Below are positions 31,400 to 57,045 of a DNA stretch of 64,000 nt, in pieces (the first letter of the stretch is position 1; each line of letters opens with the position of its first letter). The notes beneath the pieces are model-generated. The model was not told the origin of the DNA. It did not search any database and worked only from the letters and a program-made list of their open reading frames with translations. The position numbers were made by a program, and so were the translations under genes. The stretch lies in IMG/VR virus record IMGVR_UViG_3300028549_003662, positions 32,001 to 96,000 of that record. One strand, 5' to 3'. The DNA comes from a virus.

Positions 31400-32074
31400 T
31401 TAGCCCTCCAGGATGTAGCTGATGGCCTCTTCCAGCGTGTCCACGGTCTTGACAGCGTAGCAGTCACCCTCTGCGCCCAGGAAGGTGATGAGGCTGGAAG
31501 CGCGCAGGATGCTGTAGTCCGCTGTGCCGGTGCGGATAAAGATGCAATGGCAGTCGTCGTTGCCGCGCTGAATGTACAGGCGGTCTTGGATGTCGTCGTA
31601 GTTCCATTCGATATCCACGCGCTCCGGCAGCCAGTCACCGACGCCGCTCTCCTGGTACTCGAACTTCAGCGGGTGCATGAGCTTGCGGATGTGCGCGGCC
31701 TCGTTGGGTGTGATGCGGCCCATGTCCACAACGTCCATCGTGTCCTCGGCCACAACGACTTCACCGTCCTCGCTGATGGGGAAGCTGTAGTAGGTGCCGC
31801 CCTTGTAGCTGAACATGGTGCCCGTTGTGGGGTCATAGACGACGCGGTCGCCGATACGCAGCGGCTCCCGTGACGTTTCCGTGAACTCTCTGACAGTGCT
31901 GTCATGGCCGCAGTTGATGCACATGCAGGAGCTATCAGGCGTCCACTCGAAGCCGTCGTGGTCGTCGGTGCCGCTGTCGCGGACCTGCACATTTGTGGTG
32001 CTTTCGATTTCGAACGGCCCTTCGCTCTTGCACTTCGGGCACGACATCCCTATAAGCAGTCCTTTGTTTGACAT
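31400..32074 (-). CDS. multidomain protein with N-terminal Zn ribbon (paralog family)
   Basis: CPKC ... EWTPDSSCMCINC. Confidence 0.7.
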   Translation of the reverse strand: MSNKGLLIGMSCPKCKSEGPFEIESTTNVQVRDSGTDDHDGFEWTPDSSCMCINCGHDSTVREFTETSREPLRIGDRVVYDPTTGTMFSYKGGTYYSFPISEDGEVVVAEDTMDVVDMGRITPNEAAHIRKLMHPLKFEYQESGVGDWLPERVDIEWNYDDIQDRLYIQRGNDDCHCIFIRTGTADYSILRASSLITFLGAEGDCYAVKTVDTLEEAISYILEG

Positions 32075-48217: not shown

Positions 48218-50884
48218 TTCGTGTGCTCCTTCAGGGCCTTCGCGCCCATGTCAGAAATGATGATGTCGCATTTTCCGCAGCCAAACTCGCTCTTGATATT
48301 CATCCGCTTGGCGAGGCCGACACGGATCAGGCTATCGAAGATGCGTTTCGCGAACACGCCATATTTGTGAGGCGGCTTGACGTGGTAGACCTCCGTGGTG
48401 TTGCGCCGGAACGGTGTCGGGTACCACTCGCAGATTACGAGACCAGCATCCACGACCTTCAGGGCGTCAATGGCGCGCTTGGTGAGTGCGCTCATAACGG
48501 CAACTCCTTGAGGATCATGCCCTCTTCGGGCGCCGCTGCGACTTCCAATGCACGCTGCTTCGCCGAGAACGCTTCCGCGCGCTTCTTGAACGCACCCAGG
48601 AAGCTCTCCATGATGGGGACTTCGCCGCGCTCCCAGGCCTGCACGAACCCGAAACGCTCTTCGACAGGTGCCAGCAGCTCCGGCACGCAGCACGAGAAGT
48701 CGGGGCAGCACTCGTCGCTGTCGGGGTTGTGGGTGGGAGTGCCATCCAGCCACAGTTTAAGCTGTTCGCCGCCGTTCATCGTCATGCTTGTTCTCCCGCG
48801 GCGGTGAAGCCGCATTCGTAGAGGAAGTGTTGTCCGACGGGTGAACCCAGCCATATCATGACTTGGCGCACAACGGCCGCATCACGGGCGGTCATTTCTC
48901 CGTTGGGGAAATTGAACCTGTTGGCGAGCAGGACCGGGAGCACACCGGCGTATTCGGGGTTCTCCCACGTCTCGCAGACCTTCTTCTCCATCTTCGTTGT
49001 GGGCTTGCGCCGCAATGCCGCTGTGGCGGCATTGCCGTACCGGGCTTCGATCATCGCTTCCAGAGTGCCACGATGCATCAGCGGCGTGCCGCCGTTGTGG
49101 AGGATGTCGACGCGCTTCCCGCATGTTGGGCAGCACACGATGTACTCCCGCTCTTCTACGTACGCTTTCGAGCTCCCGCACCACACACAGATGTTGATGA
49201 CCTTGCTCATGTTTAAGCTCCGTGGCGGTTCGCGGCTTCCCACAGCGGCTGCATGTTCTCCGTCGGCCCCTCAGCGGGTGTGGCTTCGCGCTTGTCCGCA
49301 GCGATGCGGTAGTGCTTGCGCTCCAGCGCCATGATGCGCCCGCTGTCGAACACCACCGCTCCGTACCCTGTAGCGACCGCATAGACGTTGCCAATCTTGT
49401 AGCCGAGCTCCAGGATCGAAGCGTAGATGGTGTCCCAGTTGGGGTCGAAGGCTGCGATCCTGGGAAAGGTTTCCGCGGGGTACATGAAGTTCGCTGCACC
49501 CACCGGGGACTGGCTGAACTCACACACCAGCCGGATGTTGGCCTCGCGCAGGAGGTTGTAAGCGACGGTGTTGTCGCCACCTCCGAGGGCCTCATCGAGG
49601 TGCTTGGAATACACGTTGTTCCAGAACGGCGGACGGTGCCGCGCCAAGATGATGATGGCGTTGCTCTTCCAGTTCTTCTTGTCGTGTATCGCGATGAGGT
49701 GGGTCTCGGCGTCGAACTTGGTGAACGCGGCGCCGACAAGCGTCAGCACGCGCTCCTGCGTGGGGTGCTGCGCCATCTCGGCGTAGAACTCCTTGCAGTA
49801 GAAGAATTGCTCGTAAAAGCGTTCAAAGCGCATCATTTCTTGATCTCCTGTACGGCTTGCTCGCCCTTCGCTGTAAGGGCGATGTAATGGAAGGAAAAGC
49901 GGTAGTGCAGCGGCAGCATGATCCCCCCGGCGGCGATGAAGCCACGCTGGTTGAGAATGCTCAGCGTGCGGTGGCGGAACGGGAACCCCAACCAAAGCGG
50001 CTCCTTCCACTCCGCGCACAACATCACCGTGGCGGCATGCGTCTGCAAGTTGCGCGCGATGAAGCGCAAGGCGCGCAACTGCGTCACGGAGAACGACTTG
50101 GCGGTCACGTCCGCACCATATCCTTCAAGTTTATGGCGGCCGTCTGCTTCACACAGGGGAGGATGAGCTTGGCGAAGCTGCGGCCGGTCTTCGTGCACAC
50201 CTTCGCCGTCATCGTGGCGTGGTTGCCCTCCATGTCCTCGACACCGATCTCCAACTCCTGCAGCGCAGGGTAGAAGACGCAAGAAAGGAGGAACTCAGGC
50301 CGCGTGTGGCGGTCAGTGAGCGCCAGGGCGTCTTCGAGGTCGATTTGCGCGTTGGACAGCGCGTCCATGCGCGCCCTGGGGACGCCCATGCCGTGCCGGT
50401 GCCGCGCCGTGACCTGCGTGAGCCGCGGAAGGAAGCGGTCGACCGCGTTCTCCAAGCTCTCTACGCGGCAGAACGGGCAGGGCTCGGCAGAACTCAGCGG
50501 CGTCCACGCGCGCGAGCACCGCGTGCAAGTAGTGTTCTTGCGGGTGGCAGTCATTGTAGAGCGCCCTCACTGCTTGTCGCCGGTGTTGTAGACCCGGCCT
50601 TCAATGAGGGACAGGCGAAACTCAAGTTCCTTGACGGTCTCGGTGTTGGCAGCCGTGGCGTTGACGGCTGTGGTGAGCATCTGCACGGACTGCATGTTGT
50701 TCGCAGACATGTGCTCCACCATAATTATGGAGCGGTAGCTGACCCAGATGGACAAGATAAAGGCGACCATAAACAACATGCCCAGGATGGTGCTCCATGA
50801 AGCATTCAGCTCACGCTTTGCGGCCATAACTCCCTCTCTGAATTTGATTGCTCTTACAAGGTACTTGCGCACATCGCGCACACA

Positions 50885-51238
50885 TCAGGTTCGCTTTACA
50901 ATCACGTACGAACCGTCTTCAATCTCTAAAATTCGCCGTATACATACGTCGGCTTTTGAGATGTCAACATGCACGTTACAGCAGAAGATGTCAACCGTCA
51001 GTCGCTCAAATTCTGGAAAAGAATGGATGGAAATGTGTGATTCGCTGATGATGGCGATGGAGGTGACACCAATGGGCGTGAATTTGTGGGAGAAGACCTT
51101 GATGATCTTGCTTCCGATGGCATCGGAAATACGTTCGACAAGATATTCGAGAGCGGCGACGTTGTCGAGGGCGCGCAAGCTGCGCTGCGAGGCCGTGCTG
51201 ATGCGGTAGCTGCCGAGGAGGTTGTTTCCGATGGTCAT
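50885..51238 (-). CDS. speD: S-adenosylmethionine decarboxylase proenzyme (pyruvoyl)
   Basis: HKFTPIGVT...ISESHISIHSFPE...VDIFCC; E|SH autocleavage motif. Confidence 0.88.
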   Translation of the reverse strand: MTIGNNLLGSYRISTASQRSLRALDNVAALEYLVERISDAIGSKIIKVFSHKFTPIGVTSIAIISESHISIHSFPEFERLTVDIFCCNVHVDISKADVCIRRILEIEDGSYVIVKRT

Positions 51239-51327
51239 GTTGTTTCCGTGCTGGCGGGCAATAGGGAGTTGGATTGGGAAGGGGCTGACTTCTTTGTTTC
51301 TGCCGCGCCCATTGCCCGCCAGGTCGT

Positions 51328-51480
51328 TTAACCGAAGGCAGCGATGCCCAGGGCGGGGGTGAGGACGCGGTCCTTGTGCTCCTGCTGCTTGCCCTGGTTC
51401 CAGGCCCCTACGGGGCGGTAGTACCCGGTGACGCGAGCATAGGTGCCGGTGGTGCGAATCATCTTTTTACCTCTGACCAT
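51328..51480 (-). CDS. stand-alone NrdD glycyl-radical domain peptide (50 aa; absent from the ORF track)
   Basis: AAGGAGGG SD, then MVRGKKMIRTTGTYARVTGYYRPVGAWNQGKQQEHKDRVLTPALGIAAFG; RVTGYxRPVxxWNxGKxxExxDR is the class III RNR C-terminal signature. Confidence 0.9.
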   Translation of the reverse strand: MVRGKKMIRTTGTYARVTGYYRPVGAWNQGKQQEHKDRVLTPALGIAAFG

Positions 51481-51497
51481 GATTGTAATCCCCTCCT

Positions 51498-51941
51498 TTA
51501 GACGGTTTTGCCAGTGCTGCCGAGGCCGCCAGCACCACGAGCAGTTGCGGGAAGCTCATCGACCTCTTCGAAGACACCCTGGGCGACGGGGACGATCATC
51601 ATCTGAGCAACGCGTTCGCCGTGCTCGACGCGGCAGCCGTTGGGGCGGTCGGTCCACAAACCAAGGGTGATTTCGCCACGGAAATCATAGTCAATGACGC
51701 CGATCTGGTTGCTCAGCTTGAGGCCTTCGTTGATCCCCTTGCCGCTGCGCACGGCGATGATGCCGACGTAGCCTTCAGGTATGGCGACGGCGATGCCGGT
51801 GCTGACCTTGATGGGGGAGCCCGGCATGATGTTCTCGCAGCAGCGGGTGAGGATGGCCTGCAGGTCGAAGGCGGCGCTGCCATCGGTCTTGTAGGTGGGG
51901 ATGACGGCATCGGCGTGCATGAGCTTGATTTGGATGTTCAC
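51498..51941 (-). CDS. dut: trimeric dUTPase
   Basis: SAAFDL, RSG, GVIDYDFRGEI, RVAQM, RGAGGLGSTG. Confidence 0.95.
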   Translation of the reverse strand: MNIQIKLMHADAVIPTYKTDGSAAFDLQAILTRCCENIMPGSPIKVSTGIAVAIPEGYVGIIAVRSGKGINEGLKLSNQIGVIDYDFRGEITLGLWTDRPNGCRVEHGERVAQMMIVPVAQGVFEEVDELPATARGAGGLGSTGKTV

Positions 51942-52516
51942 TATTTGTCTCCTTCAATGGGTTTGATGACGTTGAGCCGCCATCCGTCGATGGCGAACTT
52001 GTCCTTGAGGAAGTCGAGGGTTCCGAAGCGTTCCGCGCGCGCCCCCATGTAGTCAACGACGCGAAGCTCCTTGTAGGTGGCGCTCTTGCAGCCGAACAGC
52101 ATGATGTCGAGCAAGCGCTGCCGGTACTGGCCAAGATTGCGGACGCCGTCATTGGTGGTCTTCACAGACAGCACGACGCTGTCGAAGACATCGCGGAATC
52201 CATTCAGGCCGTTCGTGTGCAGCGCCATGCTACGCCCCTCGGCCATGAAGTGGTCAGTGGCGGCTTGGAACCCTACAAGGTTCGCTGTGGGCTCGCCCCC
52301 GGAGAAGACGACGGCCACGCGGTTGCCCATCATGGCGGCGTCGGTCTTCTTCAGGGCGGCACTCACATCCTCAAGGTCGTACACGGGGCGCCCACCCACG
52401 ACGCGCTGGTTGTAGCAGTACGGGCAACTCAGGTTGCAGCCGTTGAAGAACAACGTGGCGGCCAAGCGGTTCGGGTAATCGACAAACCCGAAAACGAAGT
52501 CGTGGATGAACTTCAC
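51941..52516 (-). CDS. nrdG: anaerobic RNR activating enzyme (radical SAM)
   Basis: DYPNRLAATLFFNGCNLSCPYCYN, FSGGEPT, LHTNG; adjacent to nrdD. Confidence 0.9.
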   Translation of the reverse strand: MKFIHDFVFGFVDYPNRLAATLFFNGCNLSCPYCYNQRVVGGRPVYDLEDVSAALKKTDAAMMGNRVAVVFSGGEPTANLVGFQAATDHFMAEGRSMALHTNGLNGFRDVFDSVVLSVKTTNDGVRNLGQYRQRLLDIMLFGCKSATYKELRVVDYMGARAERFGTLDFLKDKFAIDGWRLNVIKPIEGDK

Positions 52517-52518
52517 GG

Positions 52519-54900
52519 CTAGCCCTCCACGTGGTCGGGGTAGCGGAGGCGGAACGCTTCCACCTGTTCGTCACTGTGCTCGAAGGGGCAGAACTCGTGC
52601 GTGCCGGGTATGATGCGGCCGCAGCACTCGCACTTCGTGTACACGGGGCTCACAGAGAAGTACGGGATGGGGGTGCTGCACATCGCCACCACCATCGCCT
52701 CCACTCCGACGCCGTCCAGTTCCTCACCGGTGTGGAGGTGCACAACGGTACCTCCGCTCAGGATGGGCTGCAGCACGGACTGCGTGCGCAGCAGAAGGTC
52801 CACCTGTCCCTGCAGCTCCACCGGGATGTGGCAGGAGTTGGTGAGATAGGGGGCATCAGAGGTTCCGCGATGCGGGGCCTGGGGGAACACCTTCAACATC
52901 TTGATGGCGAGCTTGTGGGCGGCGGACTCCGCAGGTGTGGCTTCGAGGTTGAAGAGCTTGCCCGTCTTCTCCGTCCACTCCTCAGTCGTGGTGCGCATGT
53001 GCTCCAGGATCTTCGCCGCCACAGCCAGGTTGGCCTCTTCAAGGAAGGAGTTGTCGTCGCCGCAGATGTACTCCACGGCCTCCCAGAGACCCACGAAGCC
53101 GACAGTGGTGAAGAAGGTGCTGAAGCCGCGCTTGAAGTTGGCCTTGGCCATGCTGAAGAAGCCGTCGTCGAAGGCCTTCTCCACGATTCCGCGCTTCCAA
53201 AGCTGCTCGTCGCGCACCAGACCCATGACGCGGTCAAGCTGCTGGTAGAAGTGCGCGAGCCGTTTCTCGGTGGTGTTGTGGTTCTCGAACACGCTGCTCA
53301 GCATGGCCAGCATGGGGAGGTTGAGCGTCACCACCTGCAGGGAGCCGGTCTGGTCGGCGTTGCCGAAGAGGCCGCCCACGTGCTTTCTTATATTCTTTTC
53401 CGATATTTGCAAACGACAGCACATACTCCTTACATCTGCGGGGTTTATCTTCTCCCCGGCGCTGTGGCCGTTGATGTAGTTCTGGAAGTAGGGGTTGCCG
53501 AACTTCGCGCTCAGCGAGAAGACGAGATCCTTGAGGGGGTGGCGGAAGAAGGCCTCGGTGACAGAGATGGTGAGGACGGGGAAGGTGAAGCCGGTCCCCT
53601 TGCTGTCGCCGCGCATGAAGTTCTTGAGGATGGCTTCGGCGACGATGTTCTGCCACATCTCGATATCGCCGTAGGTGAGGTACTCGCCCTTGCAGGAGCA
53701 TTCGAAGGTGTTGGCACCCCAGCGTTCTTCGAAGGTCTGGCCGCCGACGAGGGGGCGACGATCACGCATGTCTTCAGGAATTGTCAATGATAACGTGATA
53801 TTACTGAAGGGGCTGTTTCCGGTAACGAACATTTTGCGTGTGCTGCCGGGGACATTGCGACGCGCAATGAATGTTCCGGTGTTCGTCGTGGGACACCAAA
53901 CTTTCCCTTTGTAGTGCTTACGCCGAACTTCCGTAACGGCGAACTCCCCGATAACATTGGGCGTGTAACGGGTGTCCGGGCGCTTAATCTTCGGAATGTA
54001 ATATGCGCCTCCGGCGCTTTCCAACTCTGCAGCTTCACGCACATACAGTTTAGTCAGGCCAGAATCGGTGTACACGACACGATGCTTTTCGGTCACAACA
54101 GATTCGTAGCCCTCTCCTGAGAAATGCAAAAGGTCGCCATCGTGGTCGTAGATGTTCACATGCGTGAGCTTGTCTGACGTGACAGTTCTTGTTTCGAGGT
54201 CGACAACATATATGGAGTCGCCAACACTGAGCTCGTCGTAGCGCTTCCACCCCTTGTGCGTCAGGCACTCGGTTTTCTCATCGACGCACTGGCCGCCATA
54301 GCGGGTATTGTAATTGAGATGAAAAATCATCTCCTGCATGGATTGATCGACTTCTTCGAGAGTCATCTTCATGGCCATCTCAGGAGTCATATCGAAGGTA
54401 TTGATGCGGGAGAGGAAGAAATCCAGGGCGTAGGGGCCGAGGAAGAGGTCAACATCGTTGAAGGCCTGGGCACCGGCGAACTCGTTGCTGCAGGCTCCGA
54501 TGTGATTGATGATGTGGTTGACGGCGCTGCGCAGGCGCTTGGCGGGGCCGCTGATGATGTTCCCGGCCGATATGCCGTCATGGAGGAGATTCTCTAGGCT
54601 GTGGCCGCTGCAGTATGGGGTCTTCACGCCCAGGCCGAGATCGTGGATGTGCACGGCGCCGAGCTCATGCAGGTCAGCGAGACCATCATGTCCGGCCTTG
54701 CGCATCTCCGAGAGGTAGTTGCGCTTCAGCGCCTCTTCACCGATCACCAGCAGCAGTCCCGCCGGGGAGAGATGGCTCATGTTGGCGTTTTCCTTGGCCA
54801 GCAGACCCTCGCCGAGGTAGTTGGCGATAATGGGGTCGATGTCGAGAGTTGGGCCTTGGGGTGAGGCCGTGCCTGTGGCCGAGCTTTGAAGCTGGTCCAT
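52519..54900 (-). CDS. nrdD: class III ribonucleotide reductase core; intein-containing, no ATP-cone, no C-terminal glycyl-radical loop
   Basis: ENAN, HIHDL, PYC, NEFAGAQ, RSMCCRL, GSLQVVTLNLP, NLEATPAES, PYLTNS, SGGTVVH; ends shortly after CECCG...FCP. Confidence 0.93.
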   Translation of the reverse strand: MDQLQSSATGTASPQGPTLDIDPIIANYLGEGLLAKENANMSHLSPAGLLLVIGEEALKRNYLSEMRKAGHDGLADLHELGAVHIHDLGLGVKTPYCSGHSLENLLHDGISAGNIISGPAKRLRSAVNHIINHIGACSNEFAGAQAFNDVDLFLGPYALDFFLSRINTFDMTPEMAMKMTLEEVDQSMQEMIFHLNYNTRYGGQCVDEKTECLTHKGWKRYDELSVGDSIYVVDLETRTVTSDKLTHVNIYDHDGDLLHFSGEGYESVVTEKHRVVYTDSGLTKLYVREAAELESAGGAYYIPKIKRPDTRYTPNVIGEFAVTEVRRKHYKGKVWCPTTNTGTFIARRNVPGSTRKMFVTGNSPFSNITLSLTIPEDMRDRRPLVGGQTFEERWGANTFECSCKGEYLTYGDIEMWQNIVAEAILKNFMRGDSKGTGFTFPVLTISVTEAFFRHPLKDLVFSLSAKFGNPYFQNYINGHSAGEKINPADVRSMCCRLQISEKNIRKHVGGLFGNADQTGSLQVVTLNLPMLAMLSSVFENHNTTEKRLAHFYQQLDRVMGLVRDEQLWKRGIVEKAFDDGFFSMAKANFKRGFSTFFTTVGFVGLWEAVEYICGDDNSFLEEANLAVAAKILEHMRTTTEEWTEKTGKLFNLEATPAESAAHKLAIKMLKVFPQAPHRGTSDAPYLTNSCHIPVELQGQVDLLLRTQSVLQPILSGGTVVHLHTGEELDGVGVEAMVVAMCSTPIPYFSVSPVYTKCECCGRIIPGTHEFCPFEHSDEQVEAFRLRYPDHVEG
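53815..54288 (-). mobile_element. mini-intein (158 aa, no endonuclease) in nrdD
   Basis: RYGGQ|CVDEKTECLTHKGWK...VTEKHRV...VWCPTTNTGTFIARR...VTGN|SPFSN; removal restores RYGGQSPFSN. Confidence 0.92.
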
Positions 54901-55021
54901 GTCGTGATGCTCCTTGTTGGGTTTACTGGGATACTTCCTGCCGTTTCAAGGTGGAATGGCAGGCACCGCTCACTTATGTCTGTCGAAGGGAAAGAAGTCA
55001 AGTACGAAAAACGCCGAATGT

Positions 55022-55399
55022 TTACGCCTTGTCGGAGGTATTCGGTCTTTTACCATCACGGCGCTGCTGCGCCACTTCGGCCTCCTTGATCTCGCCATCC
55101 GTGGCACCAAGGTTCTCGCGCGCCATCTTCTTATACAGAATGTGCAGCGTCACCGGGCCGCCGAAGCCAGCCATGCCGACAACAAACTCCTTGAAGTGCG
55201 GAGCCAGGGGGCTGACGTCCATGAGCTTTCCCGCCATCAGGCCAGCGAACCCGCTGACGAAGAAACAGGAGAGGAGGGCGTAAAAGCTAGGGCGCCGGCC
55301 GCTGACGAAGAGATTCGCCAACCCACCAGTAACGCCCCAGAGCAATACGTCCAGGGCGTTCGTCAGTTCCTTTAACGGATTTGTGGTAAAGTCGATCAT
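55022..55399 (-). CDS. holin-like protein (LydA-like, 3 TM)
   Basis: GVTGGLAN...VSGFAGL...VGMAGFGG pattern, charged C-terminal tail. Confidence 0.7.
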   Translation of the reverse strand: MIDFTTNPLKELTNALDVLLWGVTGGLANLFVSGRRPSFYALLSCFFVSGFAGLMAGKLMDVSPLAPHFKEFVVGMAGFGGPVTLHILYKKMARENLGATDGEIKEAEVAQQRRDGKRPNTSDKA

Positions 55400-56007
55400 C
55401 AGCGTGCCTTCGCTAGCAGGTACAACCATGTACCGATGTACGCGAACCATGTGAAATTGAACAACCTTACTTTGTTGTACCGCGTTCTGATGTAGATGAT
55501 CTCAAGCAGCGAAATCGCAACCGCTGTACCGAACAGTATCCGCAAAACCAGCATTCCATCAAGGTCAAAAAAGGGTATGACGTGGTCGTAAACTACGTAA
55601 TTGAACCCGATTCCCAAAGCCGCGGCGTACCCCGCCAGCACCAGCTTGGGCTGCGCGTCGATATTCTCCTTCGGGACGTCCATGTCACAGGTGATGCAGG
55701 AGCTCACCATGTGGGACATGTACAGCCAGAGCAGCACGACTGTGGCCATTGGGCTCCACATGAAATTGATGTACGCATCCACTGGGTTGGCGAGCTTGAA
55801 GCCGATCTGACTCGCCACGTGCAGGCGCACGACAGTGATGGGGATCTGCGAGGCTACGTAGCACACGCCGAGGAGCATCACGGTGTGTGAGGAGTGTCCC
55901 TTGTTGAGGCTGGGGCGAATCCCCAGGGCGAGGGTGGCGGCAACGAGGACAGCGACACCCAGGAGGTGCACCGTCAGGAGGTACTGGTAGGTGTACGCAC
56001 AGATCAT
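55399..56007 (-). CDS. multi-pass membrane protein (about 6 TM)
   Basis: Several hydrophobic segments; start 56007 by ATGA overlap (56025 also possible). Confidence 0.65.
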   Translation of the reverse strand: MICAYTYQYLLTVHLLGVAVLVAATLALGIRPSLNKGHSSHTVMLLGVCYVASQIPITVVRLHVASQIGFKLANPVDAYINFMWSPMATVVLLWLYMSHMVSSCITCDMDVPKENIDAQPKLVLAGYAAALGIGFNYVVYDHVIPFFDLDGMLVLRILFGTAVAISLLEIIYIRTRYNKVRLFNFTWFAYIGTWLYLLAKAR

Positions 56008-56418: not shown

Positions 56419-57045
56419 TTAGGCTTCGACGGTGGAGGCGCGGACGATCCACCCATAGCAGAAGTCTTCCTGCGTGGGGTCGTCGCGCATGATCTTCTTG
56501 TAGTGCTGCACGGCCTCGGAGCGCATCAGCGCCATGATGACGGTCTGTCCGTCGCCGCGCCTCAACACCACATCGAGGGCGCGCGCGGTTGCGGGACCGG
56601 GGTGGCCGTCAACAACCAGATCCGGGAACATCTGGCCATTCTTGTTCATGAAGTTCAACTGCTCCTGCAGGAAGCGCCCGGCGGTCTGCGCGGTCCCGGT
56701 GTTCACCGCGTACTGGAAGAGGTAGTAGGCGATCTCGTAGGGGATGTTGTCGCCCCCGAAGCCGTCCCAATACGAGGTCTTGTAGAAGCCGCGCACAGCG
56801 GCCATGAACGCAGGATCTGCAGCCAGCGCTGCCGACATCGCCTTGCACTGCGCGGGGGTGGGGTTCTCGTTGGGTACGCCGAGACGTGCCTTGAGGGTGT
56901 CAACGACGGCCCAGCCCGGCCAGTCCGGGTAGAAGCGGCGGGAGATGCCGAAGGCGGTCTCCTTGCCGCGGTCAGTGGGCCTGTTGCCGTACGCGCCCTC
57001 GGCGCCCATCAGCTTCGCATACGCGCGCTCGTAGTTTGCAGCCAT
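56419..57045 (-). CDS. endolysin, glycoside hydrolase family 108 with C-terminal peptidoglycan-binding domain
   Basis: EGAYGNRPTDRGKETAFGIS, FYKTSYW, AVNTG, VDGHPGPAT, FCYGWIVR. Confidence 0.9.
   Translation of the reverse strand: MAANYERAYAKLMGAEGAYGNRPTDRGKETAFGISRRFYPDWPGWAVVDTLKARLGVPNENPTPAQCKAMSAALAADPAFMAAVRGFYKTSYWDGFGGDNIPYEIAYYLFQYAVNTGTAQTAGRFLQEQLNFMNKNGQMFPDLVVDGHPGPATARALDVVLRRGDGQTVIMALMRSEAVQHYKKIMRDDPTQEDFCYGWIVRASTVEA

Follow-up and report, generated by a model that had tools for sequence, protein, structure and literature searches.

A viral class III ribonucleotide reductase operon in which the predicted glycyl-radical domain is encoded by a separate small gene behind nrdG and dut

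How could a class III ribonucleotide reductase (RNR) work if the gene for its catalytic chain stops before the radical glycine has been encoded? The question is raised by a locus in the virus record IMGVR_UViG_3300028549_003662 of IMG/VR, which was analysed over positions 32,001 to 96,000 (64,000 nucleotides; this whole stretch is referred to as the window, and coordinates are those of the window unless another record is named). The window is part of a record of 146 kb which is rated 91% complete and has a G+C content of 60%. To our knowledge every description of the class III enzyme, a textbook glycyl-radical enzyme, has been of a single chain that carries the radical glycine close to its C-terminus. 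In the window the glycine-bearing loop is instead found on a peptide of 50 amino acids, the gene of which follows those for the activase (nrdG) and for a dUTPase (dut). On the basis of the sequence and comparative evidence, the operon nrdD(core)-nrdG-dut-GRD (GRD, glycyl-radical domain) very probably encodes an obligate two-chain class III RNR, with the peptide as its regular radical subunit.

The nrdD core gene (52519-54900, minus strand) encodes 793 amino acids and was identified as an NrdD barrel by both Pfam NRDD (369.9 bits, profile positions 1-534 of 562) and NCBIfam TIGR02487 (338.7 bits against a cut-off of 326). The glycyl-radical motif RVxGY is absent from this core and is carried by the product of the small gene at 51328-51480 (minus strand, 50 amino acids), which starts 1,038 nt downstream of the core stop and matches NRDD at positions 534-560 (33.9 bits against a cut-off of 26.2, E 1.9e-8). 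Because the core accounts for profile positions 1-534 and the peptide for 534-560, each above the cut-off, the two are exactly complementary. NRDD is the only Pfam family matched by the peptide; Gly_radical, the family of the radical domain of pyruvate formate-lyase (PFL), was not matched. The whole 146-kb record contains one core and one peptide only, with no further NrdD segment. These results agree with an initial annotation of the locus, which had described an NrdD without the RxxGY loop and had placed that loop about 1 kb downstream; the coordinates it gave for all elements were correct by sequence and Pfam.

Several features of the core are those of a class III enzyme. The cysteine pair C494/C495 of the finger loop (SMCCRL) is invariant in an alignment of 39 sequences, and the profile of the viral clade to which the window belongs aligns SMCCRL with the CCRL of T. 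maritima NrdD. An AlphaFold2 (AF2) model of the core (predicted local distance difference test, pLDDT, 83.8; predicted template modelling score, pTM, 0.74) had as its best fold matches the class III RNRs of P. copri, S. thermophilus, T. maritima and T4. A phmmer search of core residues 362-600 against the PDB gave no match; a profile search did. The C-terminus reads ...CECCGRIIPGTHEFCPFEH SDEQVEAFRLRYPDHVEG-stop, and includes a putative metal site, C757-x-C759-C760...C771-P-x-x-H775, in which C757 and C771 are invariant. This site is followed by an 18-residue tail, SDEQVEAFRLRYPDHVEG, which is predicted to be helical in the AF2 model and is conserved in the clade, the tails of the relatives being of the form HT-x-EQ...PEL. 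NrdD had initially been described as ending with a clean stop just after its metal-binding motif; the stop is clean, but the conserved tail lies between the two. The core is predicted to keep the requirements of a class III RNR apart from the radical loop, and in the clade of the window the putative metal site lies wholly on the core.

The peptide begins MVRGKKMIRTTGTYARVTGYYRPVGAWNQGKQQEHKDR... and its predicted radical glycine is Gly19 (codon 51424-51426), located in the sequence RVTGYYRPV, which is followed by WNxGKxxExxxR. Fifteen columns were found to be invariant in nine stand-alone peptides, namely the initiator Met, R16, V17, T18, G19, Y20, Y21, R22, P23, V24, N28, G30, K31, E34 and R38. 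Cysteine is absent from the peptide, unlike many other small radical proteins. The gene has, as initially annotated, a Shine-Dalgarno (SD) site of its own, AAGGAGGGG, which was read from the sequence of the intergenic spacer at 51481-51497 (minus strand) and ends 9-11 nt ahead of the ATG. A second ATG is present at codon 7 and corresponds to the start of a database relative of 44 amino acids. The initial protein search identified five relatives of 44-50 amino acids with 70-98% identity. When the PDB was searched with the peptide alone only chance matches were obtained, and no dedicated family for the small protein was found in NCBIfam or PHROGs.

The four genes are tightly arranged on the minus strand, with gaps of 2, -1 and 17 nt and an SD site at each of them. 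The nrdG gene (51941-52516) encodes a radical S-adenosylmethionine (SAM) activase of 191 amino acids (Pfam Radical_SAM, 47.1 bits, and Fer4_12, 30.7 bits); its start is a GTG located 2 nt past the nrdD stop, and its SD site, GGAGGG, lies within the 3' end of nrdD. The stop of nrdG shares 1 nt with the start of dut (51498-51941), which encodes a dUTPase of 147 amino acids (Pfam dUTPase, 74.5 bits). Inside the block no terminator-like sites were found, against 3.9 expected from shuffled sequences.

Conservation of this arrangement was assessed in a set of 80 viral nrdD loci, which were fetched with an alignment query and scored by hidden Markov models (HMMs) for the core and the radical domain; a single-sequence search of viral contigs with the core gave no match. 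A tree built from 152 cores places the window together with loci L015, L017, L018 and L019 in one clade (support 1.0), all five members of which are split. The order nrdG, dut, peptide gene is shared by the window and L017, the latter being located on a complete contig of 136 kb (L001/L017) with the core, nrdG, dut and then a peptide of 41 amino acids. In L015 and L018 the order is nrdG and then the peptide gene, and in L019 an HU-like gene and an unknown ORF stand ahead of nrdG and the peptide gene. A start codon and an SD site are present on the peptide gene in all clade members, with AAGGAGG preceding it in L018 and L019 and AAAGGGGG in L015, where the start is a TTG overlapping the nrdG stop. 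Pairwise identity within the clade is 42-63% for the peptide, which has not fallen behind the 47-54% of the core, and synonymous sites are saturated; that an ORF of 41-50 codons has remained intact despite this saturation indicates selection on the peptide. As judged from these gene orders, displacement of the peptide gene behind nrdG or nrdG-dut is a mark of this viral clade. The closest NrdD of an isolated phage in GenBank shares only 32% identity.

Beyond this clade, the split layout is common in phages and bacteria. When 1.84 billion representative proteins were searched with the core, the nearest 12 representatives were all found to be without the radical domain (12/12), as were 80 of the 150 top core relatives by HMM, some of which are fragments. 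In the survey of phage nrdD loci that the initial annotation had proposed, about 20 of the 80 viral loci were seen to encode the radical domain as an ORF of its own, which is adjacent to the core, 0.4-1.35 kb downstream of it, or upstream. The upstream position is seen in some phages, for example in L045 (4301-7149; order peptide, nrdG, core) and in L089 (1871-7146; 2.6 kb upstream). For bacterial and archaeal loci the domain is in a separate frame in 49 of 80, nearly always directly behind the core, and simply fused in 28 of 80. Bacterial examples of the split include Pseudomonas brassicacearum, Treponema lecithinolyticum, T. bryantii, Castellaniella, Microbulbifer, Alloalcanivorax and Paucibacter; the order in Pseudomonas is core, a peptide of 53 amino acids, and nrdG, and the small protein has been given the automatic RefSeq name 'anaerobic ribonucleoside-triphosphate reductase'. 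On the core tree, split has given way to fused or fused to split at least seven times. A search with the peptide profile returned 1,129 clusters of proteins of 22-112 amino acids carrying the motif, and in all 120 of the small-protein clusters listed a Met start is present, mostly just ahead of the motif.

Two variants of the separate domain were noted during these searches. Within a sample of 300 Clostridia, 11 of the 109 matching genomes (G233, G202, G168, G220, G405, G149, G365, G285, G282, G372 and G131) have a single in-frame TGA or TAA between core and domain, a form which could represent either a split or read-through. The separate radical domain of Treponema is fused to a C-terminal glutaredoxin-like domain (L126 7155-7832, L109 7198-7773, L096 7193-7861 and L130 7304-7855), which would place the radical subunit and its reductant on one small protein.

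Peptide genes were also identified in phage records without a core, where the radical-domain proteins are 47-64 amino acids long. These are L002 (5971-6114), a provirus rated 100% complete in which the gene is flanked by AAA_24 and DUF669 replication genes; L003 (5953-6147), rated 71% complete, with the gene near a portal gene; and L005 (5977-6138), an 11.8-kb fragment rated 26% complete, with the gene beside that of a dATP/dGTP diphosphohydrolase. As no core is present in those phages, such orphan peptides would have to act on a host partner, and given the completeness of the records the absence of a core carries weight for L002 only. A protein of 112 amino acids (P0006) has a DUF669 N-terminus joined to an orphan radical peptide and is probably a fusion, by gene call or frameshift, of neighbours of the L002 type. 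The orphans raise the idea that the NrdD peptide is an exchangeable radical cartridge, with which core-less phages (L002 being the best case) might arm or re-arm host NrdD and by the swapping of which, at 5 kDa, split enzymes such as that of the window might be renewed after O2 damage; this idea is regarded as doubtful. If it were true, PFL would cease to be the only glycyl-radical enzyme with a spare-part system, and the new system would be one shared by viruses and their hosts.

The core contains an insert of 158 amino acids (residues 205-362, encoded at 53815-54288 on the minus strand) which is most likely a mini-intein with a Hint domain. The insert splits the conserved motif GGQ|SPFSN, and has Cys as its first residue and Asn as its last, followed by Ser. 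By sequence it matches the AceL NrdHF intein 6ZGQ (E 5e-4), with a weak Pfam Hint match, and its predicted fold matches inteins and Hint domains (template modelling score about 0.77 to 6ZGQ). Within the clade it was found in the window and L017 and is missing from L015 and L019.

A working scheme for the enzyme would begin with removal of the intein from the 793-residue core. The barrel and the finger-loop cysteines would then come from the core, as would the nucleotide sites and the complete metal site, and the peptide would supply the radical-glycine loop and the short helix behind it. Following association of the two chains, NrdG and SAM would abstract a hydrogen from Gly19 of the peptide, and the location of the activase gene ahead of that of its putative substrate across the clade fits such an action of NrdG. 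For catalysis the peptide loop would enter the core barrel beside Cys494/495 and pass the radical to a thiol as in one-piece NrdD. The double cysteine of the finger loop, together with T. maritima NrdD as the best match, hints at a thiol reductant, which would come from the host because no phage-encoded thioredoxin or glutaredoxin was found above cut-off. A consequence of this layout is that cleavage by O2 at the radical glycine would cost only a peptide of 5.6 kDa, and swapping the peptide after such damage may be of benefit.

Other explanations of the small gene were weighed against a two-chain enzyme. One is that insertion of nrdG-dut broke nrdD and left the small ORF as a functionless remnant, and it is true that mobile elements often fragment phage nrdD (PMC3653736; bioRxiv 10.1101/2025.08.10.669567); such decay is nevertheless very unlikely, as the 41-50-codon ORF has kept its start, its SD site and the 15 invariant residues in lineages with saturated synonymous sites, as the core tail is conserved across the clade, and as the same split has become fixed in many bacterial species. 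It may also be asked whether the pieces are rejoined to one chain through RNA splicing, protein trans-splicing or ribosome bypassing, given how often phage RNR genes carry introns and inteins and given the intein in this very core. However, no Rfam match at E<=1 was obtained for 50500-55500, group I introns included, the intervening 1 kb consists of two intact and conserved genes, and the core tail and the peptide N-terminus (18 residues each, with no Hint match) are too short to be the halves of a split intein, which together make rejoining extremely improbable. The initial annotation had argued from the two intact intervening genes that the split is no frameshift artefact, and this is upheld by the Pfam matches of nrdG and dut, by conservation in the clade and by the lack of an intron or terminator. 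That the peptide is a decoy or regulator, titrating NrdG or blocking host NrdD, would suit the orphan copies of core-less phages, which need a host target; but it would leave unexplained an otherwise complete and well-folded core from which just this segment is missing, as well as the invariance of the radical-loop residues, and is hardly credible.

Closer to the two-chain enzyme is the possibility that the main role of the peptide is that of a spare part, re-arming cores the radical domain of which has been destroyed by O2, possibly with host NrdD among them, in the manner of GrcA/YfiD and T4 Y06I for PFL. This possibility draws on the stand-alone genes of core-less records (one complete, two incomplete), on the large size of the peptide family and on the precedent of YfiD and T4 Y06I (PMC13450708). 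Against it, the lack of a radical domain in the window core makes the peptide indispensable here, and a search of 421 Clostridia genomes revealed no fused NrdD accompanied by a small stand-alone copy; as a main role it is therefore considered unlikely. Of the two-chain RNR with an exchangeable peptide that was initially envisaged, the structural claim has gained strong comparative support. A spare-type role on the GrcA model would not fit this phage: with a core that lacks a radical domain, the peptide would be a regular part and not a spare. There are also observations which weigh against a two-chain enzyme as such. Finger-loop residues 495-515 were modelled with low confidence, and the best NCBIfam match of nrdG, NrdG2 TIGR02495, scores 66.5 bits against a cut-off of 131, which is below the curated NrdG cut-offs. 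Saturation of synonymous divergence (dS) in the clade renders the ratio of non-synonymous to synonymous divergence (dN/dS) uninformative, and a metagenome scan for a close relative with available DNA found none, the best being 61% identical. With these points included, an obligate two-chain RNR is the explanation preferred here.

The surroundings of the operon were also inspected. Approximately 90 nt after the peptide gene lies a gene for an S-adenosylmethionine decarboxylase-like protein of 117 amino acids (50885-51238, minus strand; Pfam AdoMet_dc, 79.8 bits), which is a neighbour of the SAM-consuming activase system. Just upstream of the RNR operon a lysis cassette was identified (55022-55450 and 56419-57045, minus strand), comprising a LydA-type holin (30.1 bits) and a GH108 endolysin with PG_binding_3.

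The locus is of relevance to the fields of RNRs and of glycyl-radical enzymes. A radical domain supplied in trans would be a ready-made system for studying the way in which the activase gets to the glycine and the loop into the barrel. The split form would also allow repair of O2 damage through replacement of a small peptide to be tested, a matter which is open beyond PFL according to a June 2026 review, in which formate lyases are the sole glycyl-radical enzymes with spare-part proteins and others are 'yet to be determined' (PMC13450708). Annotation practice should change as well, in that cores without the motif should not be taken for pseudogenes and in that ORFs of 40-60 amino acids are easily missed or automatically named as full reductases. 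For phages, the layout suggests that the anaerobic supply of deoxyribonucleoside triphosphates can be tuned via a very small gene.

In the open-access literature no account was found of an NrdD for which the radical domain is supplied in trans, and the system is best placed by comparison with four known ones. One-piece class III NrdD/NrdG systems (T. maritima 4COI/4U3E, P. copri 8P23 and phage T4 1H78) resemble it in the barrel fold, in the metal site at the C-terminus, in the RVxGY motif and in having the gene for a radical-SAM activase alongside, and T. maritima NrdD in addition in the CCRL finger-loop motif. In contrast to these, the last ~30 profile positions, with the radical glycine, are found in the window on a separate 50-residue protein 1 kb downstream, and the core ends in a clade-specific helical tail instead. 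The PFL cofactors GrcA/YfiD of E. coli and Y06I of phage T4, the latter being a phage-encoded spare domain (PMC13450708), resemble the peptide in being small stand-alone glycyl-radical domains, presumably activated by the cognate activase. The peptide of the window differs from GrcA/YfiD in its homology to NrdD and not to PFL, and in having a partner core without a radical domain of its own.

A natural RNR with a C-terminal module on a separate polypeptide is known in the split class II enzyme NrdJa/NrdJb of Pseudomonas aeruginosa (PMC4520616, PMC9669993), although both the class and the module are different, NrdJb bearing a Zn-finger and a reducing tail and no radical site. The known split RNR genes of phages are broken by introns, inteins or homing endonucleases (PMC3653736; bioRxiv 10.1101/2025.08.10.669567), and the nrdD genes among them, including those of the Jug phages, are like that of the window in being in pieces, an intein being present in the window core also. 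However, the sequence that intervenes in the window is made up of two metabolic genes with no splicing signal found, and the intein is located elsewhere, at residues 205-362. What the window contributes beyond these systems is a separate viral clade in which the gene for a cysteine-free peptide is displaced to a position behind nrdG or nrdG-dut, together with an intein within the core.

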